Source of the DNA: an uncultured Pseudomonadales bacterium
GTDB taxonomy: Bacteria; Patescibacteriota; Microgenomatia; UBA1400; RBG-16-45-19
Direction: 5' to 3'
DNA: 64,000 nt
Assembly: GCA_964441155.1 (NCBI GenBank)
Contig: CAYYKL010000004.1
Span: forward strand, 5,103-69,102
This document shows, piece after piece, positions 363 through 64,000 of this stretch; within the stretch, counting starts at the first letter, position 1; every line of letters starts with the position of its first letter. The notes below the pieces were generated by a model. The model had not been told where the DNA came from. It made no database searches and was given only the letters and a program-made list of their open reading frames with translations. The position numbers and the translations under genes are program-made.

Positions 363-1763
363 ATGAAAAATGAATTAAATCAAGAACAATCGATTATAGC
401 TCATATCAATGCCCTAAGGCGGAGAACGCTTAGAACATTTTCAAGCTATGGCCTGCTGAGTCTTGTGCTGCTATCTTTTTTGGGTACCCCTGATAATGCA
501 CAAGGCGGCATGACTCCAATTAATCATGATTTGCATTCAGTTATCTATGATCCAGAGGCAATTCATACAGACCAAAAAGAAAATTTTTCTGCTTCAGGAA
601 ACGTGCATGCTTTTGCATCGAAAGAAGCAGATTCTCTCTTCCAAGTACGGGGAAATACTGGAATTGAAATTACAGAGGAAGACTATAAAGACAATAAACC
701 TCCTCAAGTAGCTAGAGAATCCCTATCTCGAGCACAAGAACAATATTCTAGAATTGCCTCAATATACGCTAGTGAAGTAAGAGTGCTATATCCAACTTCA
801 TTCCAAGAACTGATGGACCGCAGCGGCCAAACCAAAAGTCCTATTAATCCATTTATTAATGTCAGACTTAGGAATGAACGTTCCGAAGATGATGCGAGAA
901 TTTTTACGAAAACTGCAACTCTTCTTCTTGGATCAAATACAACGAGAGTTGTTAGATCGGTTTCAGAAACAGGAACAGCGAGTCATGTTTTTGCATATGT
1001 AGACCCATCAAAAGAAGTGATAGGCTTTGGATTAAATTTCACAAGTTTTAGAGGCGATCTCGGAGCAAAACGGAAAACTGCCATACATGAAGTAATTCAT
1101 TTAATTGATTTATCTGCAGGGAATTACGATTTAGAAACCAGAATTCGCATGGAAACACTCAAAGCGGAGGCGTTTGCACTCTATGATCCATTTTACATAT
1201 TTGACACTAAGTATTGGGGAGACATCGATAGCTACTACGCACAGGATGGCGATGGAAATTTTGTCAATCCATTATATAAATTTGGTTTTGCAGTTATTAA
1301 TTCTTTTGAGCGAAATCCTGATTTAACATTCTTTGATAATTCGGAAATTCAGACAGAATTTATTAATAAAATGCTTGAATGGCAATCGAATGGTTGGAGT
1401 CACCAAGATATATTGCGTATTGGTCGGCTGACAGTTGAGAATCGAATGCTAAATCCAAGATTTCTTTTTCCTGATAGCAACTTGGAAAGTTGGTATACCT
1501 TTTTCTCTTCCTGGATGTTGATGGAGTCTTGGCCAGCATTAGTTGACGAATGCTTATCAGGAAATGGCTCTGCCATCAATCAAGATAAAGAGCTTAAGGA
1601 GTTAATGCGTCAGTATCTAGAGCTTGCTTCAGGGAGAAATATTGATAATATTGACGAATTAATTTACAGCTTGAGATGGGAAGGCGGTTTGTGGGAAACG
1701 GATGATCCGATAAATATTAGGTATCCTGCTCCTCCTTTAAATTTTGAGGCTATGTATCAATAA
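363..1763 (+). CDS. Hypothetical secreted or membrane-anchored protein with an HExxH motif (possible zinc metallopeptidase)
   Basis: 466-aa ORF with an N-terminal hydrophobic segment (LLSLVLLSFLG). A single HEVIH (HExxH) motif lies in ...KTAIHEVIHLIDLS.... I recognise no other family signature. Confidence 0.35.
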   Translation: MKNELNQEQSIIAHINALRRRTLRTFSSYGLLSLVLLSFLGTPDNAQGGMTPINHDLHSVIYDPEAIHTDQKENFSASGNVHAFASKEADSLFQVRGNTGIEITEEDYKDNKPPQVARESLSRAQEQYSRIASIYASEVRVLYPTSFQELMDRSGQTKSPINPFINVRLRNERSEDDARIFTKTATLLLGSNTTRVVRSVSETGTASHVFAYVDPSKEVIGFGLNFTSFRGDLGAKRKTAIHEVIHLIDLSAGNYDLETRIRMETLKAEAFALYDPFYIFDTKYWGDIDSYYAQDGDGNFVNPLYKFGFAVINSFERNPDLTFFDNSEIQTEFINKMLEWQSNGWSHQDILRIGRLTVENRMLNPRFLFPDSNLESWYTFFSSWMLMESWPALVDECLSGNGSAINQDKELKELMRQYLELASGRNIDNIDELIYSLRWEGGLWETDDPINIRYPAPPLNFEAMYQ

Positions 1764-2485: not shown

Positions 2486-3289
2486 TTAAAGACTGCTCTG
2501 GCGTGCATCAATTGAAAGTGTAACTCGATTTGTTTCGTTGTAACCACCACTCATGTGTGTCCAGCGAATTTTAATGAGTTCCACAAACATGCGCCAAGAA
2601 TCCCGTAGGGGGTTGACCCGATTTGAGTACACATGTTGCCAAAACACGGGCACTTCTTTAACTCGATAATTTTCTTTTGCTGCTAGAAACAATAGCTCGA
2701 CATCGATGGCTCCTGTATACGCTTTCGTTTCTTTTTTCGACTGACCACAGACAACCAAGTTTGAAAATAATTGCACTGCGACTTTGTCTCTAAAAAGCTT
2801 AAAGCCACATTGCGTGTCGCTTATGCCATTGTAAATCAAGTGATGCACCAACATCCGAAAACCCCAACCCATAAACCGTCTATAGATTGGGTCATTATGG
2901 CGCTTTGCCTTGCCAAGTGTTCTTGAACCAATCACAATATCGTAGCCTTTTTGGGTATAACCCATAAGCTTATTAAGCTCGGTTATCGGAGTCGCCTGAT
3001 CAAAATCGGTAAACAATCGCCACGTTCCTTTTGCACTGAGCATGCCAGCAATTAATGCTTGGCCTTTGCCCGCATGGGGAATGGTTTTGACACGCACCTC
3101 TTTCTTGTCTCGAGCAAAGGCAGTTAGCAATCGCTTGGTTTTATCCGTAGAGCCGTCATTTACCAAAAGCATTTCAAACGATTTTCTTTCACCTTTCAAA
3201 AAGGTGTATACCAATTCCAATGATCCAGTGTGGAAATTTTCCTCTTCGTTGTAGGCGGGGATGATGACACTTAAATGAATTTTAGACAT
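2486..3289 (-). CDS. Family-2 glycosyltransferase (dolichyl-phosphate sugar synthase-like)
   Basis: The N-terminus LSVIIPAYNEEENF...LLVNDGSTDKT is the classic GT2 DxD-region architecture. Confidence 0.8.
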   Translation of the reverse strand: MSKIHLSVIIPAYNEEENFHTGSLELVYTFLKGERKSFEMLLVNDGSTDKTKRLLTAFARDKKEVRVKTIPHAGKGQALIAGMLSAKGTWRLFTDFDQATPITELNKLMGYTQKGYDIVIGSRTLGKAKRHNDPIYRRFMGWGFRMLVHHLIYNGISDTQCGFKLFRDKVAVQLFSNLVVCGQSKKETKAYTGAIDVELLFLAAKENYRVKEVPVFWQHVYSNRVNPLRDSWRMFVELIKIRWTHMSGGYNETNRVTLSIDARQSSL

Positions 3290-3455: not shown

Positions 3456-5642
3456 ATGCCCTCTTCAACCCTGCTAACCGTTGTCGTTCCAGTGCGCAAC
3501 GAACGCTACACACTCGAAGCCTTCTTTTTGCGCTTACACAAAGCGCTCTCTTACGCCAAGATACCCTATCAAGTTGTTGCGGTTGATGACTCTTCTGAAG
3601 ATGGCTCGAGCCAAAAACTCTCCAGCCTGGCTAAAGATTATCCCATCACAATCTTGCCAAAAAGCGGTCCCTTAGGAAAAGGCTACTCGTTGCATGAAGG
3701 TTTAAAAACGGTCACTACACCGTTTGCTTGCTATATCGATGCAGACAACGCCTACCCGCCAGAAATGATTCCGGAAATGCTGGTCAAGCTGAATACTGCT
3801 GATATTGTGGTCGCCCAGCGCAATTATTCCAAAAAGGGTAGATGGTTAAAAAAATCTTTAGCCAAATTTTTCAGACGAGTATTTGGACAAGCATTGTTTG
3901 GACTCGACTTCGATGTGCAAGCAGGATTGAAAGTATTTCGCACCGATGCCTTCGCGTCACTTGATCTACACCCCTCAACCTGGAGTTTCGATATAGAATT
4001 TCTCTACAAGGCCGTTCATGCCGGATTTGTCGTTGTTGCACACGACATCAACTATGCTCAGCGCTCAAATGGCAAAGGAAAACATAATCTCTTTACTGCT
4101 GGCATTGAATTGGTTTTATTGTCACTTAAACATCGTTTGTCGCCGCTTAAACCAGTGCACGTGCAAACAAGAGGTTTGACGCGTCAAGTGGGGTGGAAAA
4201 AAATGCGCTTCGATACCCACACTGATTTGCATTATTCTCAAGCAGCCATTCAAACGTTGACTATTAAACAAATTGCGCTCTTTGTGATGGCAATTGCGAT
4301 TGTGGCACTTTTATTTGTATTTGATTGGCAAAAATCCTTGGCCGTCACGGTCTCACTAATTACCGCCTTTTACTTTCTTGATTTGCTATTCAATTTATAT
4401 CTAATCCGGGCAGCATTCAAAAAAAATCCGGCGATACAGATTACCCCCAAGCAAATTGAAGCCTATGACAAACCATGGCCTATGTATTCAATCATGTGTC
4501 CACTCTATAAAGAGTGGCAGGTAATCCCACAATTTACTCAAGCAATTCAGGCAATTGATTATCCCAAAGACAAACTCGACGTGATGCTTATTCTTGAAGA
4601 AGACGATACAGAAACTATTGCAAAAGTGAAAAGCATGAGCCTGCCTGCCTATTTTCGAACGATTATCGTGCCCGATGCACAACCAAAGACAAAACCCAAA
4701 GCGTGCAATTACGCACTCAAAAAAGCCAAGGGTGAATATGCGGTTATCTATGACGCCGAAGACGTGCCAGATCCATTGCAACTCAAAAAAAGCATCGTTG
4801 CCTTCAATCAATTACGCAAGCAAAATATTGTGTGTTTACAGGCAAAACTGAATTACTACAATCCAGAACAAAATCTTTTAACTCGTTTTTTTACGGCTGA
4901 ATACAGCTTATGGTTCGATGTCATTTTGCCGGGGATGCATAGCGTCAATGCGCCTATTCCCCTGGGAGGCACTTCAAACCACTTCAAAGTTTCGGATCTA
5001 AAACTTCTTTCTGGCTGGGATCCGTTTAATGTCACTGAAGACTGTGACTTGGGCATGCGCCTCGTTAAATATGGCTATCGCACCATGATCTTAGATAGCA
5101 CCACCTATGAAGAGGCTAATTCGGACGTAGCTAATTGGTTCCGGCAACGTTCACGCTGGATCAAAGGTTATATCCAAACGTATCTCGTGCACATGCGATC
5201 ACCTCAGGAATTTTTAAGTGACTGGCATAATCCTAACTTACTCTTTTTTCAATTAATTGTCGGTGGCAAAGTGTTGTCACTCATAATCAATCCGATCATG
5301 TGGATAACCACGATTGTGTATTTCACTCTAAGATCAACTGCTGGAGCTTTTATAGAATCTCTCTTTATTGGACCAGTTTTCTATCTAGGTTTCACCGCAC
5401 TAGTATTAGGAAACTTCATGTATCTCTACTACTACATGATTGGAAATGCCAAGCGGGAGCAATGGTCACTCATTAAATACTGCTATCTCATCCCGATTTA
5501 TTGGCTGATGATGAGCATTGCAGCCTGGAAGGCATTCTATCAAATCATGGTTAAACCTCACTATTGGGAAAAAACTACTCATGGACTCCATCTAGGATCA
5601 GGGGAGTCGATTACGTTTTCATTATCTAAAAATGCACTATGA
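3456..5642 (+). CDS. Bifunctional glycosyltransferase carrying two GT2 domains; the second is a processive synthase-like domain with a QxxRW motif
   Basis: The N-terminal domain TVVVPVRNE...VVAVDDSSEDGS is GT2. The second domain has ...YAVIYDAEDVPDP..., a TED, and QRSRWIKG (QxxRW), followed by C-terminal TM helices, as in cellulose/chitin/hyaluronan-synthase-like GT2s. 728 aa. Confidence 0.7.
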   Translation: MPSSTLLTVVVPVRNERYTLEAFFLRLHKALSYAKIPYQVVAVDDSSEDGSSQKLSSLAKDYPITILPKSGPLGKGYSLHEGLKTVTTPFACYIDADNAYPPEMIPEMLVKLNTADIVVAQRNYSKKGRWLKKSLAKFFRRVFGQALFGLDFDVQAGLKVFRTDAFASLDLHPSTWSFDIEFLYKAVHAGFVVVAHDINYAQRSNGKGKHNLFTAGIELVLLSLKHRLSPLKPVHVQTRGLTRQVGWKKMRFDTHTDLHYSQAAIQTLTIKQIALFVMAIAIVALLFVFDWQKSLAVTVSLITAFYFLDLLFNLYLIRAAFKKNPAIQITPKQIEAYDKPWPMYSIMCPLYKEWQVIPQFTQAIQAIDYPKDKLDVMLILEEDDTETIAKVKSMSLPAYFRTIIVPDAQPKTKPKACNYALKKAKGEYAVIYDAEDVPDPLQLKKSIVAFNQLRKQNIVCLQAKLNYYNPEQNLLTRFFTAEYSLWFDVILPGMHSVNAPIPLGGTSNHFKVSDLKLLSGWDPFNVTEDCDLGMRLVKYGYRTMILDSTTYEEANSDVANWFRQRSRWIKGYIQTYLVHMRSPQEFLSDWHNPNLLFFQLIVGGKVLSLIINPIMWITTIVYFTLRSTAGAFIESLFIGPVFYLGFTALVLGNFMYLYYYMIGNAKREQWSLIKYCYLIPIYWLMMSIAAWKAFYQIMVKPHYWEKTTHGLHLGSGESITFSLSKNAL

Positions 5643-22500: not shown

Positions 22501-22534
22501 ACAAAAATAGGCTGGATTAATCCAGCCTATTTTG
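22501..22534. terminator. Bidirectional intrinsic terminator downstream of the minus-strand tRNA-Glu
   Basis: A perfect 20-nt palindrome AGGCTGGATTAATCCAGCCT flanked by caaaaat and attttg. Confidence 0.55.
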
Positions 22535-24282: not shown

Positions 24283-24372
24283 TATGATGCCTTATTTGAT
24301 TGTTTTTAGAGGACGCCTCTCTTGAACTATCAAAACAAGCTCATGTTTTACGTCCGGATGTAAAACCAATAT

Positions 24373-24402
24373 CCCGCTGTAAGCGTTACAGCGGGATTTT
24401 TG
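24373..24402 (+). terminator. Intrinsic terminator after ORF 23164..24282
   Basis: CCCGCTGTAA-gcg-TTACAGCGGG followed by ATTTTTGG. Confidence 0.6.
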
Positions 24403-45663: not shown

Positions 45664-45736
45664 GCCGGAGTAGCTCAGTTGGTAGAGCAATGGTATCGTA
45701 AACCATGGGTCGTGGGTTCGAATCCCACCTCTGGCT
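45664..45736 (+). tRNA. tRNA-Thr (anticodon CGT)
   Basis: GCCGGAGTAGCTCAGTTGGTAGAGCAATGGTATCGTAAACCATGGGTCGTGGGTTCGAATCCCACCTCTGGCT folds as a cloverleaf. Anticodon loop ATCGTAA. Confidence 0.85.
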
Positions 45737-45809
45737 CACACACAAACTCGCATCGATGCATGAAAAAACAAATGAATGTTTAATCAAAAAGTATTGATAG
45801 AATTAACGT

Positions 45810-59785: not shown

Positions 59786-60607
59786 ATGAAATTTACACTA
59801 TCTATTCCACTTTCTGACCATACTCAAGCTCGTAATGAGGTCATTGCCAAACTGGCGCTAAGCGTAACCGTTAAAGGGTTTCGCAAAGGCAAAGCACCGA
59901 TAGCCAAGGTTGAAGAAAAATTAGATGAGGGATACATTACCGAACAGACGGTCAATCATATATTCCCTTCAGCTTTTCGTATCTATTTGCAAAAAAATAA
60001 TCTTGAACCTATAGGCGATCCAAGCGTTACGATTACCTCAATTGAAAAAGATAAAGATTGGGAATTTGAAGTTGAGATTGCGCAAAAACCAGAGGTGATA
60101 TTGGGTGATTATGCAAAAAAAATTGCATCTCAAAATAGCGCCTCGCAAATAATTTTGCCAGGAGATGAAGCATCCAAGACGCAAGTTCCAGATAAAGAAA
60201 ACAAAATTAATAAAATTTTGGAATTATTATTAGAAGAAGTAAAAGTGGAAGTTCCGAAATTATTAGTTGAGCAGGAAGCAAACCGCAAATTAGCCACCCT
60301 TGTTAAGCAGATTACCGATATGGGGCTTACGGTAGATGCATATCTAAAATCTCAAAATATCACCAAAGAACAGCTTAAAGAGCAATATGAACATGCAGTT
60401 GAAACTAATCTCAGGGTAGATTTTACTCTAGAAGCAATCGCACTTGAGCAAAAGATCCAGGTGTCAGATATCGAATTACGTGAACAAATCAACAGTATCA
60501 ACGATCCACATGAGAGAAAACACGTTGAAGAAAGTGACATGTATCAAGCCAGTCTTCGGTATTCCCTCATGAGAAACAAAGTAATTGATTATCTCTTAAA
60601 CCTATAA
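59786..60607 (+). CDS. tig: Trigger factor, short form (ribosome-binding N-domain plus C-terminal chaperone domain; no PPIase domain)
   Basis: The GFRKGKAP signature in the N-terminal domain and a conserved TF C-terminal region. 273 aa against about 430 for canonical TF. Confidence 0.65.
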   Translation: MKFTLSIPLSDHTQARNEVIAKLALSVTVKGFRKGKAPIAKVEEKLDEGYITEQTVNHIFPSAFRIYLQKNNLEPIGDPSVTITSIEKDKDWEFEVEIAQKPEVILGDYAKKIASQNSASQIILPGDEASKTQVPDKENKINKILELLLEEVKVEVPKLLVEQEANRKLATLVKQITDMGLTVDAYLKSQNITKEQLKEQYEHAVETNLRVDFTLEAIALEQKIQVSDIELREQINSINDPHERKHVEESDMYQASLRYSLMRNKVIDYLLNL

Positions 60608-61424: not shown

Positions 61425-61501
61425 GACCGCTTAGCTCAGTTGGCTAGAGCGCTTCGTTGACATCGAAGAGGTCGGAGGTTCAAGTCCTCCAGCGGTCACC
61501 A
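61425..61501 (+). tRNA. tRNA-Val (anticodon GAC); CCA encoded
   Basis: GACCGCTTAGCTCAGTTGGCTAGAGCGCTTCGTTGACATCGAAGAGGTCGGAGGTTCAAGTCCTCCAGCGGTCACCA. Anticodon loop TTGACAT. Confidence 0.85.
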
Positions 61502-61558: not shown

Positions 61559-61954
61559 ATGGACGGTGAGCCAAAGTTAGTCGTAAAAAGTGAAATGCCC
61601 CAAGATAGAACAGGTACGAGGACCATGTTTGATCCAACGGTCACTCGGTGGGAGATTTTTACTCGCAACCTTATAGCCGGCTTTGGCAGAGCACTGGGTG
61701 GGACCATCATTTATTTTGCTTTTCTTCTCATTGTCGGTGGCGTCGTTGGACAGATAGTTTTCCCCATATTTAAACCCTATATTGACTCGTATATGAATAT
61801 ATTGAGTGGTTTTAGTCAAATTAATAACCCCCAAAACACCACGAATGACCCCAGCATGCAAATTCAAGATAGAAACAATACGGAGACTTCTAATATCGAT
61901 GAGCTGTTAAAAAATCCCAAGGTGCAAGATTTGCTTGAGCAGTTTGCTCAATAA
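61559..61954 (+). CDS. Small hypothetical membrane protein
   Basis: The ORF-track start at 61457 lies inside tRNA-Val. ATG 61559 has GAGGTG 4 nt upstream and is the likely start. One or two TM helices. Confidence 0.35.
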   Translation: MDGEPKLVVKSEMPQDRTGTRTMFDPTVTRWEIFTRNLIAGFGRALGGTIIYFAFLLIVGGVVGQIVFPIFKPYIDSYMNILSGFSQINNPQNTTNDPSMQIQDRNNTETSNIDELLKNPKVQDLLEQFAQ

Positions 61955-61994
61955 CACGTTTTGCACATGATCCGTTTTAATTTATAACAATTCA

Positions 61995-62078
61995 ATGATA
62001 CACTTCCCTCACATGAAACAAAGTCTAATGATCGCCACTACAACTACCATGCTCCTAAACGGGGAAGTCGTGTTGTAG
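61995..62078 (+). CDS. Candidate thrS leader peptide (27 aa) with four consecutive Thr codons
   Basis: atg ata cac ttc cct cac atg aaa caa agt cta atg atc gcc ACT ACA ACT ACC atg ctc cta aac ggg gaa gtc gtg ttg tag translates to MIHFPHMKQSLMIATTTTMLLNGEVVL. The stop is 24 nt before a terminator hairpin. There is no clear SD. Confidence 0.4.
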   Translation: MIHFPHMKQSLMIATTTTMLLNGEVVL

Positions 62079-62102
62079 CAAAATTGCAAAGACACTTAAG
62101 CT

Positions 62103-62124
62103 AGCCCCGATTAGGGGCTTTTTT
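62103..62124 (+). terminator. Intrinsic terminator/attenuator 80 nt upstream of thrS
   Basis: AGCCCC-gatta-GGGGCT followed by TTTTTT. Confidence 0.55.
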
Positions 62125-62206
62125 AATGCGCGTCTGCGCAAAGCACACGTTCATAATTATAGATATATGCGTCATAATAGGAATTAGTTAGTAAAAAAGG
62201 AATCTC

Positions 62207-64000
62207 ATGTCGATTGCACCAAACAAAAAACAGGAGCAGGAATATCTAGACAAGCTCCGCCATTCAGCCGCCCATTTGCTCGCTGCCGCAGTGCTTGAAC
62301 TCAGGCCAGAAGCTAAGCCGACCATTGGGCCAAGTATTGATGATGGTTTTTATTACGATTTTGATTTTCAAGATAAACCTATCTCGGAAAACGACTTACC
62401 CAAAATTGAGCAAAAGATGCGTGAGCTAGTTAAAAAGTGGCAAGGCTTTGAACGAATTGAGGTTGACAAACACGCTGCACTGCAAAAAGTTGGCAATAAT
62501 GAATTTAAGCATGAGCTTATTGAAGAGTTTTCGGCTGAAGGGAAAACTCTATCAATATACAAATCGGGAGCGTTTGAAGATTTATGCCGTGGTGGCCACA
62601 TTGAGAACCCCAGTCTTGAACTCAAACACTTCAAGCTTATGAGTGTCGCGGGAGCGTATTGGCGGGGGAGTGAGAAAAACAAAATGCTAACCAGGATTTA
62701 TGGCACGGCGTGGAAAAGCAAAGAAGACTTGGATAAGTATCTTCAATTACTTGAAGAGGCCAAAAAGAGAGACCACCGCAAATTAGGCAAAGAACTCGGA
62801 TTATATTTCATTGACGACACAGTGGGCAAAGGATTAGTAATGTGGTTGCCAAATGGGGTAATTGTTCGTGACGAAATCGAAGCGCTGGTAAAAGAAAAAG
62901 AAAAACAAGCTGGATATATGCGCGTGAGCACCCCCCACATCGCTAAAGAAGAGCTGTATCTCACCTCAGGACATTTGCCATATTACAAAGACTCGATGTA
63001 TCCACCCATGATCATGGATGATGGCACGTATTATCTCAAGGCAATGAATTGTCCGCATCATCACCAAATTTATCTCCATGAACCTCGAAGTTACCGTGAT
63101 TTGCCATTGAGATTTGCTGAATACGGAACCTGTTACCGTAACGAGTTATCAGGCACGCTAGCCGGTTTGTTGCGAGTTCGCAGCATGGCAATGAATGACG
63201 CTCATATTTACTGCCGCAAAGACCAGATAAAACAAGAGATTTCGGCGGTGATAGAGTTAACGCAAGCGTATTTTTCGCTATTCGGATTAGAAAACTATTG
63301 GTTTAGGTTATCGAAATGGGATCCAAACCGAACCGAAAAATATTTTAATGAACCTGAAAATTGGGAGTATTCGCAGAACGTCATTCGCGAAGTGCTTGAA
63401 GAAATGAAAGTTGAGTATGTTGAAGTAGATGACGAAGCGGCGTTTTATGGTCCCAAAATTGACGTACAATTCCGCTCGGCGATCGGTCGAGAAGAAACCA
63501 TGTCTACTATTCAATTGGATTTTGTTGCCAGAAAGCGCTTTGGCTTGACCTATGCAGACAATGAAGGCACTCAAAATAGTGATGTGTTCGTGATTCATAG
63601 GGCACCACTTTCTGTGCACGAGCGTTTTTTAGCATTTCTCATTGAGCACTTCGCAGGAGCATTTCCCTTCTGGCTTAGCCCTTTGCAAGTCGTCGTGGTC
63701 CCCATAGCTAGACTCCATCATGATTATGCTCAAAAAATCGTTGACCAACTTGAGTCTCAATCAATTCGTGCTCATACCTGGAGTGATGGCAGTATGGGAA
63801 AAATGATTCGATTGGCTGAGAAGCAAAAGGTGCCGGTAATTGTGGTTGTCGGTGATAGGGAGCAAGCAGAACAAACAGTTTCTCTTCGACTACATGGGAA
63901 TCAATCTCAGGGCTCGGTTGCAATTCAAGCACTGATAGACACGCTTGTTTTGGCAAAATCACAACGCTTGCTTGACATGCCTCCTTTCAAGCAAACATAA
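62207..64000 (+). CDS. thrS: Threonyl-tRNA synthetase (lacks the N-terminal TGS domain)
   Basis: Editing-domain HSAAHLL, class II motifs (…FRLSKWDP…; …QLDFVARKRFGL…), and an anticodon-binding C-terminus. 597 aa; the stop falls at the window end. Confidence 0.9.
   Translation: MSIAPNKKQEQEYLDKLRHSAAHLLAAAVLELRPEAKPTIGPSIDDGFYYDFDFQDKPISENDLPKIEQKMRELVKKWQGFERIEVDKHAALQKVGNNEFKHELIEEFSAEGKTLSIYKSGAFEDLCRGGHIENPSLELKHFKLMSVAGAYWRGSEKNKMLTRIYGTAWKSKEDLDKYLQLLEEAKKRDHRKLGKELGLYFIDDTVGKGLVMWLPNGVIVRDEIEALVKEKEKQAGYMRVSTPHIAKEELYLTSGHLPYYKDSMYPPMIMDDGTYYLKAMNCPHHHQIYLHEPRSYRDLPLRFAEYGTCYRNELSGTLAGLLRVRSMAMNDAHIYCRKDQIKQEISAVIELTQAYFSLFGLENYWFRLSKWDPNRTEKYFNEPENWEYSQNVIREVLEEMKVEYVEVDDEAAFYGPKIDVQFRSAIGREETMSTIQLDFVARKRFGLTYADNEGTQNSDVFVIHRAPLSVHERFLAFLIEHFAGAFPFWLSPLQVVVVPIARLHHDYAQKIVDQLESQSIRAHTWSDGSMGKMIRLAEKQKVPVIVVVGDREQAEQTVSLRLHGNQSQGSVAIQALIDTLVLAKSQRLLDMPPFKQT

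Follow-up and report, generated by a model that had tools for sequence, protein, structure and literature searches.

A candidate threonine-codon leader-peptide attenuator in front of thrS in Microgenomates-type bacteria

Bacteria of the Candidate Phyla Radiation (CPR, also Patescibacteria) have tiny genomes, mostly without amino acid biosynthesis, and almost no gene regulation has been described for them. They generally lack the pathway for threonine biosynthesis. How, then, might such a cell adjust the synthesis of its threonyl-tRNA synthetase (ThrRS) to the supply of charged tRNA-Thr? This question is raised by the leader of thrS, the ThrRS gene, in a stretch of 64,000 nucleotides from contig CAYYKL010000004.1, which we call the window; coordinates without a locus name refer to it and to its forward (+) strand. 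Between a gene for a 131-aa protein and thrS lies an interval of 252 nt, which houses a short open reading frame (ORF), a run of Thr codons and an intrinsic terminator. We estimate with a probability of roughly 80% that this leader would act as a ribosome-mediated transcription attenuator of thrS, in which translation of a leader peptide senses charged tRNA-Thr. The downstream genes infC-rpmI-rplT are probably controlled together with thrS. The evidence consists of the sequence elements themselves, their conservation, alternative RNA pairings in silico and the co-variation of the paired segments.

The leader ORF and its recurrence in front of related thrS genes

The maximal leader ORF (61995..62078) encodes MIHFPHMKQSLMIATTTTMLLNGEVVL and includes three in-frame ATGs; read from the ATG at 62013, the putative leader peptide ORF (62013..62078) encodes MKQSLMIATTTTMLLNGEVVL. 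The candidate regulatory codons ACT ACA ACT ACC follow each other directly at 62037..62048, a GGGG is found at 62061..62064 and the stop codon occupies 62076..62078. The hairpin of the intrinsic terminator AGCCCC-GATTA-GGGGCT (62103..62119, -12.0 kcal/mol) begins 24 nt beyond the end of the stop codon and is followed by six T residues up to 62124. A first-pass annotation made from the sequence had described the Thr-codon ORF, the four codons, the GGGG and the terminator, and all of them are present at these positions. It had given 80 nt for the gap between terminator and thrS, which measures 82 nt instead (62125..62206); this spacer holds the thrS Shine-Dalgarno sequence AAGGA (62197..62201). 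The regulated gene itself (62207..64000, 597 aa) carries the Pfam domains tRNA_SAD, tRNA-synt_2b and HGTP_anticodon, without an N-terminal TGS domain. Its closest ThrRS relatives (57-72% identity) come from Microgenomates-type CPR/Patescibacteria metagenome-assembled genomes labelled Woesebacteria, Levyibacteriota, Roizmanbacteria and Pacebacteria.

Runs of four ACN codons are uncommon in this DNA, four being found in the 64 kb on both strands versus 0.78 expected, and the chance expectation of such a run in a 252-nt leader on one strand is approximately 0.0015. Under strict criteria, the whole window contains three intrinsic terminators on both strands, at 24372..24396 (+), 62103..62119 (+) and 22529..22508 (-); a lenient terminator scan is not significant alone, with 6 sites seen versus 4.4 expected. 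The terminator at 24372..24396 was also considered as a similar switch and rejected, since the 947-aa ORF downstream carries Laminin_G_3 and is no synthetase, and no codon-run ORF stands before the terminator.

Conservation in related genomes was the test that the first-pass annotation had set beforehand for a Thr-codon attenuator on thrS, and its outcome supports the proposal. Among approximately 180 thrS loci gathered from genome, metagenome and Logan collections, the same module was found upstream of thrS in ten related loci, which contribute 11 more leaders and whose ThrRS proteins are 63-72% identical. The module comprises an ORF of 13-21 codons without Shine-Dalgarno sequence, a cluster of Thr codons, a stop codon, a GC hairpin and a T-run. 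The leader peptides read MNQSFFVSTTTTYPR (L006), MIIKSILTTTTCP (L011), MNKSFIVVTTTTFP (L087), MKLVLRQITTTTNPV (L009), MLIICCTTTTTQIPAGA (L086), MKMQFRTTTSTIIPE (L169), MIQKIMTTATTTTTR (L170), MLNIRCTTTTTTFIPVGA (L171) and MNITTTTTTSPVWE (L174), and locus L172 has a tandem pair (799..1170), MNINKIINNLTTTA and MNNFFYKLTTTTTCPFFGKFL, each ending in a stop codon and each with its own terminator. The L172 pair is followed by a 71-aa ORF bearing a Shine-Dalgarno sequence and then by thrS; its second leader is broken by a run of N within repeated flanks, which looks like a scaffolding artefact.

All 12 leaders have a Thr cluster, with four to six consecutive Thr codons in ten of them (the window and nine of the 11 others), and beyond the Thr run the peptide sequence is variable. 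A terminator is likewise present in 12/12 leaders. The sequence of its stem varies by locus (AGCCCC/GGGGCU, CCCCCG/CGGGGG, CCUCCCU/AGGGAGG, CCCCGC/GCGGGG, CUCCCC/GGGGAG, CCCUCC/GGAGGG, CCUCC/GGAGG), while the pairing stays perfect. Spacing is rather constant: in the ten leaders measured, 46-55 nt separate the stop codon from the end of the T-run, and the element from ATG to T-run takes approximately 95-115 nt. The spacer between terminator and thrS has 26-60 nt in the relatives, with the shortest values (26-29 nt) in L169 and L174. The neighbours upstream of the module vary and include tRNA-Val, IMPDH, a 378-aa protein and a divergently transcribed gene.

Outside this group, such leaders are rare. 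Of the thrS loci, 158, mostly actinobacterial, offered 150 nt or more upstream of the gene, and among these only the present clade, L024 and L088 have four or more ACN codons in a row; approximately 150 other thrS loci, again mostly actinobacterial, are without such Thr runs. A looser scan of 168 loci, which asked for four Thr within six residues close to the stop of an ORF, adds L169 and L172 together with three unrelated ORFs in L113, L136 and L167. No Thr leader was found in L007, L010, L012, L014-L017, L021, L022, L089, L090, L167, L168 and L175, and in L166 the ORF (MSPIQQTTIMPVARS) holds just two Thr and the terminator is missing. From its distribution, the module is patchy and clade-restricted and travels with thrS. 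In L024 (approximately 3640..3760) and L088 (approximately 2670..2790), an ORF ending in TTSTTTT(T)A before its stop codon is followed by the conserved CAGCGTAAA(A)GCTGCCCATTG(C/T)TTT, with a weak hairpin only. Their ThrRS proteins carry a TGS domain at the N-terminus and share 45-57% identity with that of the window, and L024 is labelled Woesearchaeota; these two loci may represent a different variant of Thr leader.

The choice of Thr codons is biased as well. The 56 putatively regulatory codons of the 12 leaders comprise 28 ACT, 19 ACC, 9 ACA and no ACG, compared to a share of 18.8% for ACG among the Thr codons in the long ORFs of the window. Either the switch reads the GGU and UGU isoacceptors only, or the pairing of the RNA excludes G at the third position.

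Alternative RNA structures and the 5' end of the leader mRNA

When folded, the leaders yield all four segments expected of a classical attenuator: region 1 contains the Thr codons, and the stop codon falls in region 2 or beside it. Region 1 of the window (62038..62055) extends from CUACAAC of the Thr codons through CUCC and forms the 5' arm of a protector hairpin. Region 2 (CGGGGAAGUCGUGUUGUAG, 62060..62078, including the stop codon) can be the partner of region 1 or of region 3 (GCUAGCCCCG, 62100..62109), which holds the 5' arm of the terminator hairpin (regions 3:4) and is the antiterminator partner of region 2. The 1:2 hairpin is found in 12/12 leaders with -12 to -22 kcal/mol when the nascent RNA preceding the terminator is folded; its Thr codons pair with a GU-rich arm further downstream, and its tip is a CCCU/GGGG sub-hairpin. 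In the window it reaches -13.3 kcal/mol in the fold of 62031..62082, with pairs 62038-44:62072-78 and 62052-55:62061-64. The segment CUUCCCUC (62002..62010), just before the ATG at 62013, is complementary to GGGGAAG (62061..62067) and rivals the 1:2 hairpin when the RNA is folded from 61995; this pairing is relevant only if transcription begins at or before 61995.

The antiterminator of the window (62056..62113) folds with -17.0 kcal/mol (z = -2.67, 3/200 shuffles as good) and pairs CGGGG (62060..62064) with CCCCG (62105..62109) and AGU (62066..62068) with GCU (62100..62102). Hence, the pairing of GGGG with CCCC that the first-pass annotation had drawn is recovered, but the best fold has AGU-GCU in place of the AAGT-ACTT it had suggested. 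The expected alternation is also seen across loci. When the second Thr codon is covered by a ribosome and transcription has yet to reach the 3' arm of the terminator, the terminator 5' arm pairs with region 2 in 10/10 leaders folded; when the ribosome is moved to the stop codon, it masks region 2, and the terminator is formed in 10/10 as well. Counted from the stop codon, region 2 falls between about -16 and +14 nt in all ten of these leaders.

Antiterminator and terminator co-vary between loci. Duplexes of regions 2 and 3 are more stable between partners from the same locus than between partners from different loci (-14.8 vs -10.8 kcal/mol, permutation p = 5e-5), and the difference persists among the nine non-redundant leaders (-14.5 vs -10.3 kcal/mol, p = 4e-4). 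A MAFFT alignment of the 12 leaders displays a shared layout of Thr run, CCCU, loop, GGG, GU-rich segment and terminator. The RNAalifold consensus of the same 12 leaders is nearly empty, and MAFFT sets the terminator stems out of register, which is why per-locus folding and the cross-locus duplex permutation test were used.

From these structures, we propose the following course of events. Transcription would begin at the leader AUG or a few nucleotides before it, and the ribosome would load on this leaderless or nearly leaderless AUG without Shine-Dalgarno sequence and trail the polymerase. If Thr-tRNA is scarce, the ribosome would stall on the four Thr codons (62037..62048) and occupy region 1, such that region 2 (CGGGG...GUUGUAG, 62060..62078) could pair with region 3 (62100..62109), no terminator would form and thrS would be transcribed. 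If Thr-tRNA is plentiful, the ribosome would reach the stop codon at 62076..62078 and cover region 2, and the 3:4 hairpin with its U6 would terminate transcription at approximately 62124. With zero translation, the 1:2 and 3:4 hairpins would both form and transcription would end. Hence, the element could also terminate read-through from the upstream gene.

The start of the leader mRNA deserves particular attention, because the first-pass annotation had seen a weakness in the missing Shine-Dalgarno sequence. It is indeed absent before all 12 leader ORFs, including all three ATGs of the window. This objection may have lost much of its force, since the motif is rare in this genome, a Shine-Dalgarno-like motif being found within 20 nt of the start in only 11 of 54 long window ORFs, and since an extended -10 box stands close to the ATG. 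In seven of the eight promoter-bearing leaders, i.e. those without a preceding tRNA or other attenuator, window included, its motif TGNTANNNT ends at a distance of 6-13 nt upstream of the leader ATG, compared to a background frequency of 0.00084 per nt. L170 provides an example with the arrangement TTGACA-16-TGATACAAT-6-ATG. In the window, the box TGATACACT (61996..62004), a probable promoter, lies 8 nt before the ATG at 62013. The proximity of the extended -10 to the ATG predicts, and in our view suggests, that the leader mRNA is leaderless or nearly so. The -10-like hexamers before the long ORFs of the window give too few matches to gauge how common leaderless genes are.

A second promoter-like pair, TTTGCA-17-TATAAC, exists as the first-pass annotation had noted, but at 61960..61988 rather than at 61965..61993; its -10 (61983..61988) ends 6 nt before the ATG at 61995. 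Accordingly, two arrangements can be envisaged, the extended -10 at 61996..62004 with the AUG at 62013 as the likely one and TATAAC at 61983..61988 with the AUG at 61995 as the alternative. The ATG at 62013 is the more likely functional start, because its product MKQSLMIA-TTTT lines up with MNQSFFVS-TTTT of L006 and MNKSFIVV-TTTT of L087; both starts share the same frame and leave the logic unchanged. In L006 (1..65), L011 (1..56) and L087 (2800..2859), the leader ATG is situated 2-12 nt past the 3' end of a tRNA-Val(GAC) or of its remnant. In L087 the remnant looks like the 3' half of a second, truncated tRNA-Val copy, for which ARAGORN gives no call. In these three loci, tRNA processing might create the translated 5' end.

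The surroundings of the leader in the window can be described briefly. The upstream neighbour, outside the attenuator, is the gene for the 131-aa hypothetical membrane protein (61559..61954; gene call in L002/L004), for which a Pfam search gave no match. It is preceded by a tRNA-Val(GAC) gene (61425..61501), detected by ARAGORN and Rfam and syntenic upstream of thrS in L006, L011, L017, L087, L166 and L167. The full upstream order, trigger factor, DUF5660, tRNA-Val(GAC) and small membrane protein, is syntenic in several relatives. The trigger factor (59786..60607) is short, with 273 aa, and consists of the N- and C-terminal domains only, no peptidyl-prolyl isomerase domain being detected. A tRNA-Thr(CGT) gene is located elsewhere in the window (45664..45737). 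Downstream of thrS and beyond the window, Logan contigs with identical thrS copies continue with infC-rpmI-rplT, a 65-aa ORF and pheS-pheT. The 65-aa ORF overlaps the start of pheS, and the pheS product (L001 4190..6040, L002 5994..7844) has 616 aa and contains Pfam tRNA-synt_2c (AlaRS-type) besides the PheRS alpha domains.

Competing explanations and known systems

Several observations weigh against an attenuator of this kind. The window ORF extends nine codons beyond the Thr run, compared to one to six elsewhere, which places the GGGG, 15 nt before the stop codon, at the 5' edge of the footprint of a terminating ribosome, such that masking is borderline. The 2:3 duplex of the window ranks only third or fourth of nine in the cross-locus comparison. 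Tested against shuffles locus by locus, the antiterminator stands out only weakly in several cases (p = 0.03-0.66), because the shuffles keep the G-rich composition and any G-rich segment pairs with the C-rich arm. In several loci, the terminator stays the most stable fold even when a ribosome sits on the last Thr codon; hence, the switch must be kinetic. The leaders of L006, L011 and L087 follow a tRNA without a visible promoter, the second leader of L172 follows another terminator, and the selection of the AUG is unexplained there. Furthermore, a weak promoter-like site lies between terminator and thrS, and approximately nine of 20 Microgenomates-type thrS loci are without the module. Finally, several links in the chain are inferred: where transcription would begin, that it would end at the terminator, that the ORF is translated, that the ribosome stalls and that Thr has an effect.

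Could the hairpin simply be the ordinary terminator of the 131-aa gene (61559..61954), with a Thr-run ORF that arose by chance and a separate thrS promoter in 62125..62206? The hairpin does lie downstream of a co-oriented gene, the sequence TTCATA-17-CATAAT (62150..62178) stands between terminator and thrS, the leader ORF has no Shine-Dalgarno sequence and a lenient scan shows no excess of terminator-like sites. Nevertheless, the Thr cluster and the terminator stay with thrS in the ten other loci whatever the upstream neighbour, and spacers of 26-29 nt as in L169 and L174 are too short for a separate promoter. The promoter-like site in the window matches 9/12 promoter positions, which is chance level, and coincidence is made improbable by the low number of Thr runs expected by chance and by the co-variation of antiterminator and terminator. 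Strain variants with a different sequence before 61956 keep the leader, too: the Logan contigs L003 and L005, from other samples, equal the window from 61956 on and retain the entire leader, whereas their first approximately 29 nt are identical to each other and unrelated to the window (61928..61955), such that the strains part exactly where the upstream gene has its stop codon. We therefore give this explanation hardly any credence. Read-through from the 131-aa gene would run into the same terminator, and a hairpin with this second task, ending upstream transcription, is compatible with attenuation of thrS.

Another possibility is a conserved leader that works without ribosome stalling, either by direct binding of ThrRS or uncharged tRNA-Thr or as an untranslated ORF with a constitutive partial terminator or processing site. 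Precedents exist, since thrS is under T-box control in Firmicutes and under a ThrRS-binding operator in E. coli (the latter mentioned in PMC2965389), and both the lack of a Shine-Dalgarno sequence and the three leaders directly behind a tRNA would suit it. It is opposed by the absence of any Rfam match, T-box or other, up to E 10, by an ATG-to-T-run length too short for a T-box and by an in-frame AUG, Thr-codon run and stop at fixed distance, which form the signature of a reading frame rather than of an anticodon-mimic loop. Moreover, the spacer beside the thrS Shine-Dalgarno sequence is unstructured and the peptide varies outside the Thr run. We regard this explanation as unlikely. A third view accepts the attenuator as proposed here but takes as its main product either the leader RNA released at the terminator or the peptide, which would act in trans as rnTrpL and peTrpL do in Sinorhizobium (PMC6614838, PMC7298713). 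A short terminated transcript would be abundant under plentiful Thr; however, conservation of RNA and peptide is confined to the Thr run and the paired segments, and we consider such a function very improbable.

Several known systems lie close to the proposed element. Attenuation of pheST is established in gamma-proteobacteria. The E. coli pheST attenuator shares with the proposed attenuator of the window a synthetase gene controlled by leader codons of its own amino acid and the conserved cluster thrS-infC-rpmI-rplT-pheST. The two differ in amino acid and gene (Phe and pheST versus Thr and thrS), in lineage (Gammaproteobacteria versus CPR/Microgenomates) and in the window ORF being without Shine-Dalgarno sequence and apparently leaderless or nearly so. 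The enterobacterial thrL (Rfam Thr_leader, RF00506) has a Thr-codon run, alternative hairpins and an intrinsic terminator as well and senses charged tRNA-Thr, but it controls thrABC biosynthesis, contains also Ile codons and belongs to a gammaproteobacterial sequence family. The window leader gave no match to this model up to E 10 and would be thrL-like in its working only.

The thrS T-box of Firmicutes (e.g. Bacillus) regulates the same gene in response to the same signal, the charging of tRNA-Thr, by a choice between terminator and antiterminator. It differs in being an RNA of 200-300 nt that senses uncharged tRNA directly, without translation. The first-pass annotation had seen no T-box motif, and Rfam agrees: the T-box model (RF00230) does not match the window leader at gathering score or up to E 10, the element being only approximately 95-115 nt long. 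The window leader matches no Rfam family at all up to E 10, and in the 18 related loci no T-box, Thr_leader or other Rfam family reached the gathering score. The E. coli thrS operator also provides feedback on thrS through its 5' leader, but by anticodon-like hairpins beside the Shine-Dalgarno sequence, which are bound by ThrRS and act at the level of translation initiation. An operator of this type was rejected for the window, as the spacer is unstructured (62125..62210 folds no better than shuffles, z = +0.36), the spacers of the relatives have only 26-60 nt and the conserved parts are the codons and the terminator; the unstructured spacer argues against an E. coli-type ThrRS operator.

The first-pass annotation had regarded a Thr leader on thrS as unusual, which is less unprecedented than it had assumed. 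Besides pheST, attenuators have been predicted on leuS and trpS in Streptomyces (PMC1262725), and an RNA-seq study of S. lividans lists a weak case, thrL, before thrS itself and reports Streptomyces leader peptides to be leaderless (PMC8079986). These share with the window leader the position of leader peptides before synthetase genes, and a leaderless start would be a second resemblance. S. lividans ThrL (MKRVRPFLETTPGFVPAR) has two Thr codons only and no clear U-tract terminator and relies on the RNA-seq of one genome, whereas the leaders described here have mostly four to six consecutive Thr codons, a canonical terminator and 12 diverged representatives. According to a survey from 2010, no leader-peptide systems outside Proteobacteria and Actinobacteria had been known until then, and the survey added Firmicutes (PMC2965389). 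Our literature search on leader-peptide attenuation in CPR/Patescibacteria found no report.

Phe-rich leaders and the meaning for CPR bacteria

The same genome contains further candidates outside the window. Between rplT and pheS (L001 3734..4001), two tandem Phe-rich leader ORFs encode MTYTFFCTFSFTWIQPGE and MRPKMRCMPKHNINTIFFLFTYFWSCRGGVL, each up to a stop codon, and are followed by the terminators CTCCCC-CAAAA-GGGGAG-T7 (first) and CTCCC-GCACATA-GGGAG-T7 (second); the first peptide also has four Thr. These leaders look like pheST-type attenuators, have the same operon position as in E. coli and count in favour of the attenuator proposed for thrS. Phe leaders at pheST would imply that the lineage uses such control on at least two synthetase operons.

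It is tempting, though still speculative and in our estimate rather doubtful, to extend this picture to a small attenuator regulon of Microgenomates-type CPR bacteria, comprising at least thrS and pheST, in which the leader AUGs would be 5'-terminal or nearly so and without Shine-Dalgarno sequence. Some of the 5' ends could then stem from 3' processing of the tRNA-Val situated 2-12 nt upstream, which would couple tRNA maturation to attenuation, and since ACG is absent from the regulatory codons (0/56), only the GGU and UGU isoacceptors would be reported.

The mechanism as such is textbook; the finding extends known biology without a new mechanism, and the element is in no curated sequence family. 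Its interest is moderate and concerns CPR biology and annotation. The 12 diverged leaders offer a seed for a covariance model, which is of practical value, as gene callers miss such ORFs or call them hypothetical proteins. For a Thr leader on thrS itself, they make the most convincing comparative case to date, and with it comes a third solution for the control of thrS besides the T-box and the ThrRS-binding operator. If the proposed attenuator and the Phe-type leaders on pheST are real, CPR bacteria would couple transcription and translation tightly enough for classical attenuation, would track tRNA charging to tune the levels of their synthetases and would be able to begin translation on AUGs that have no Shine-Dalgarno sequence and are probably leaderless.

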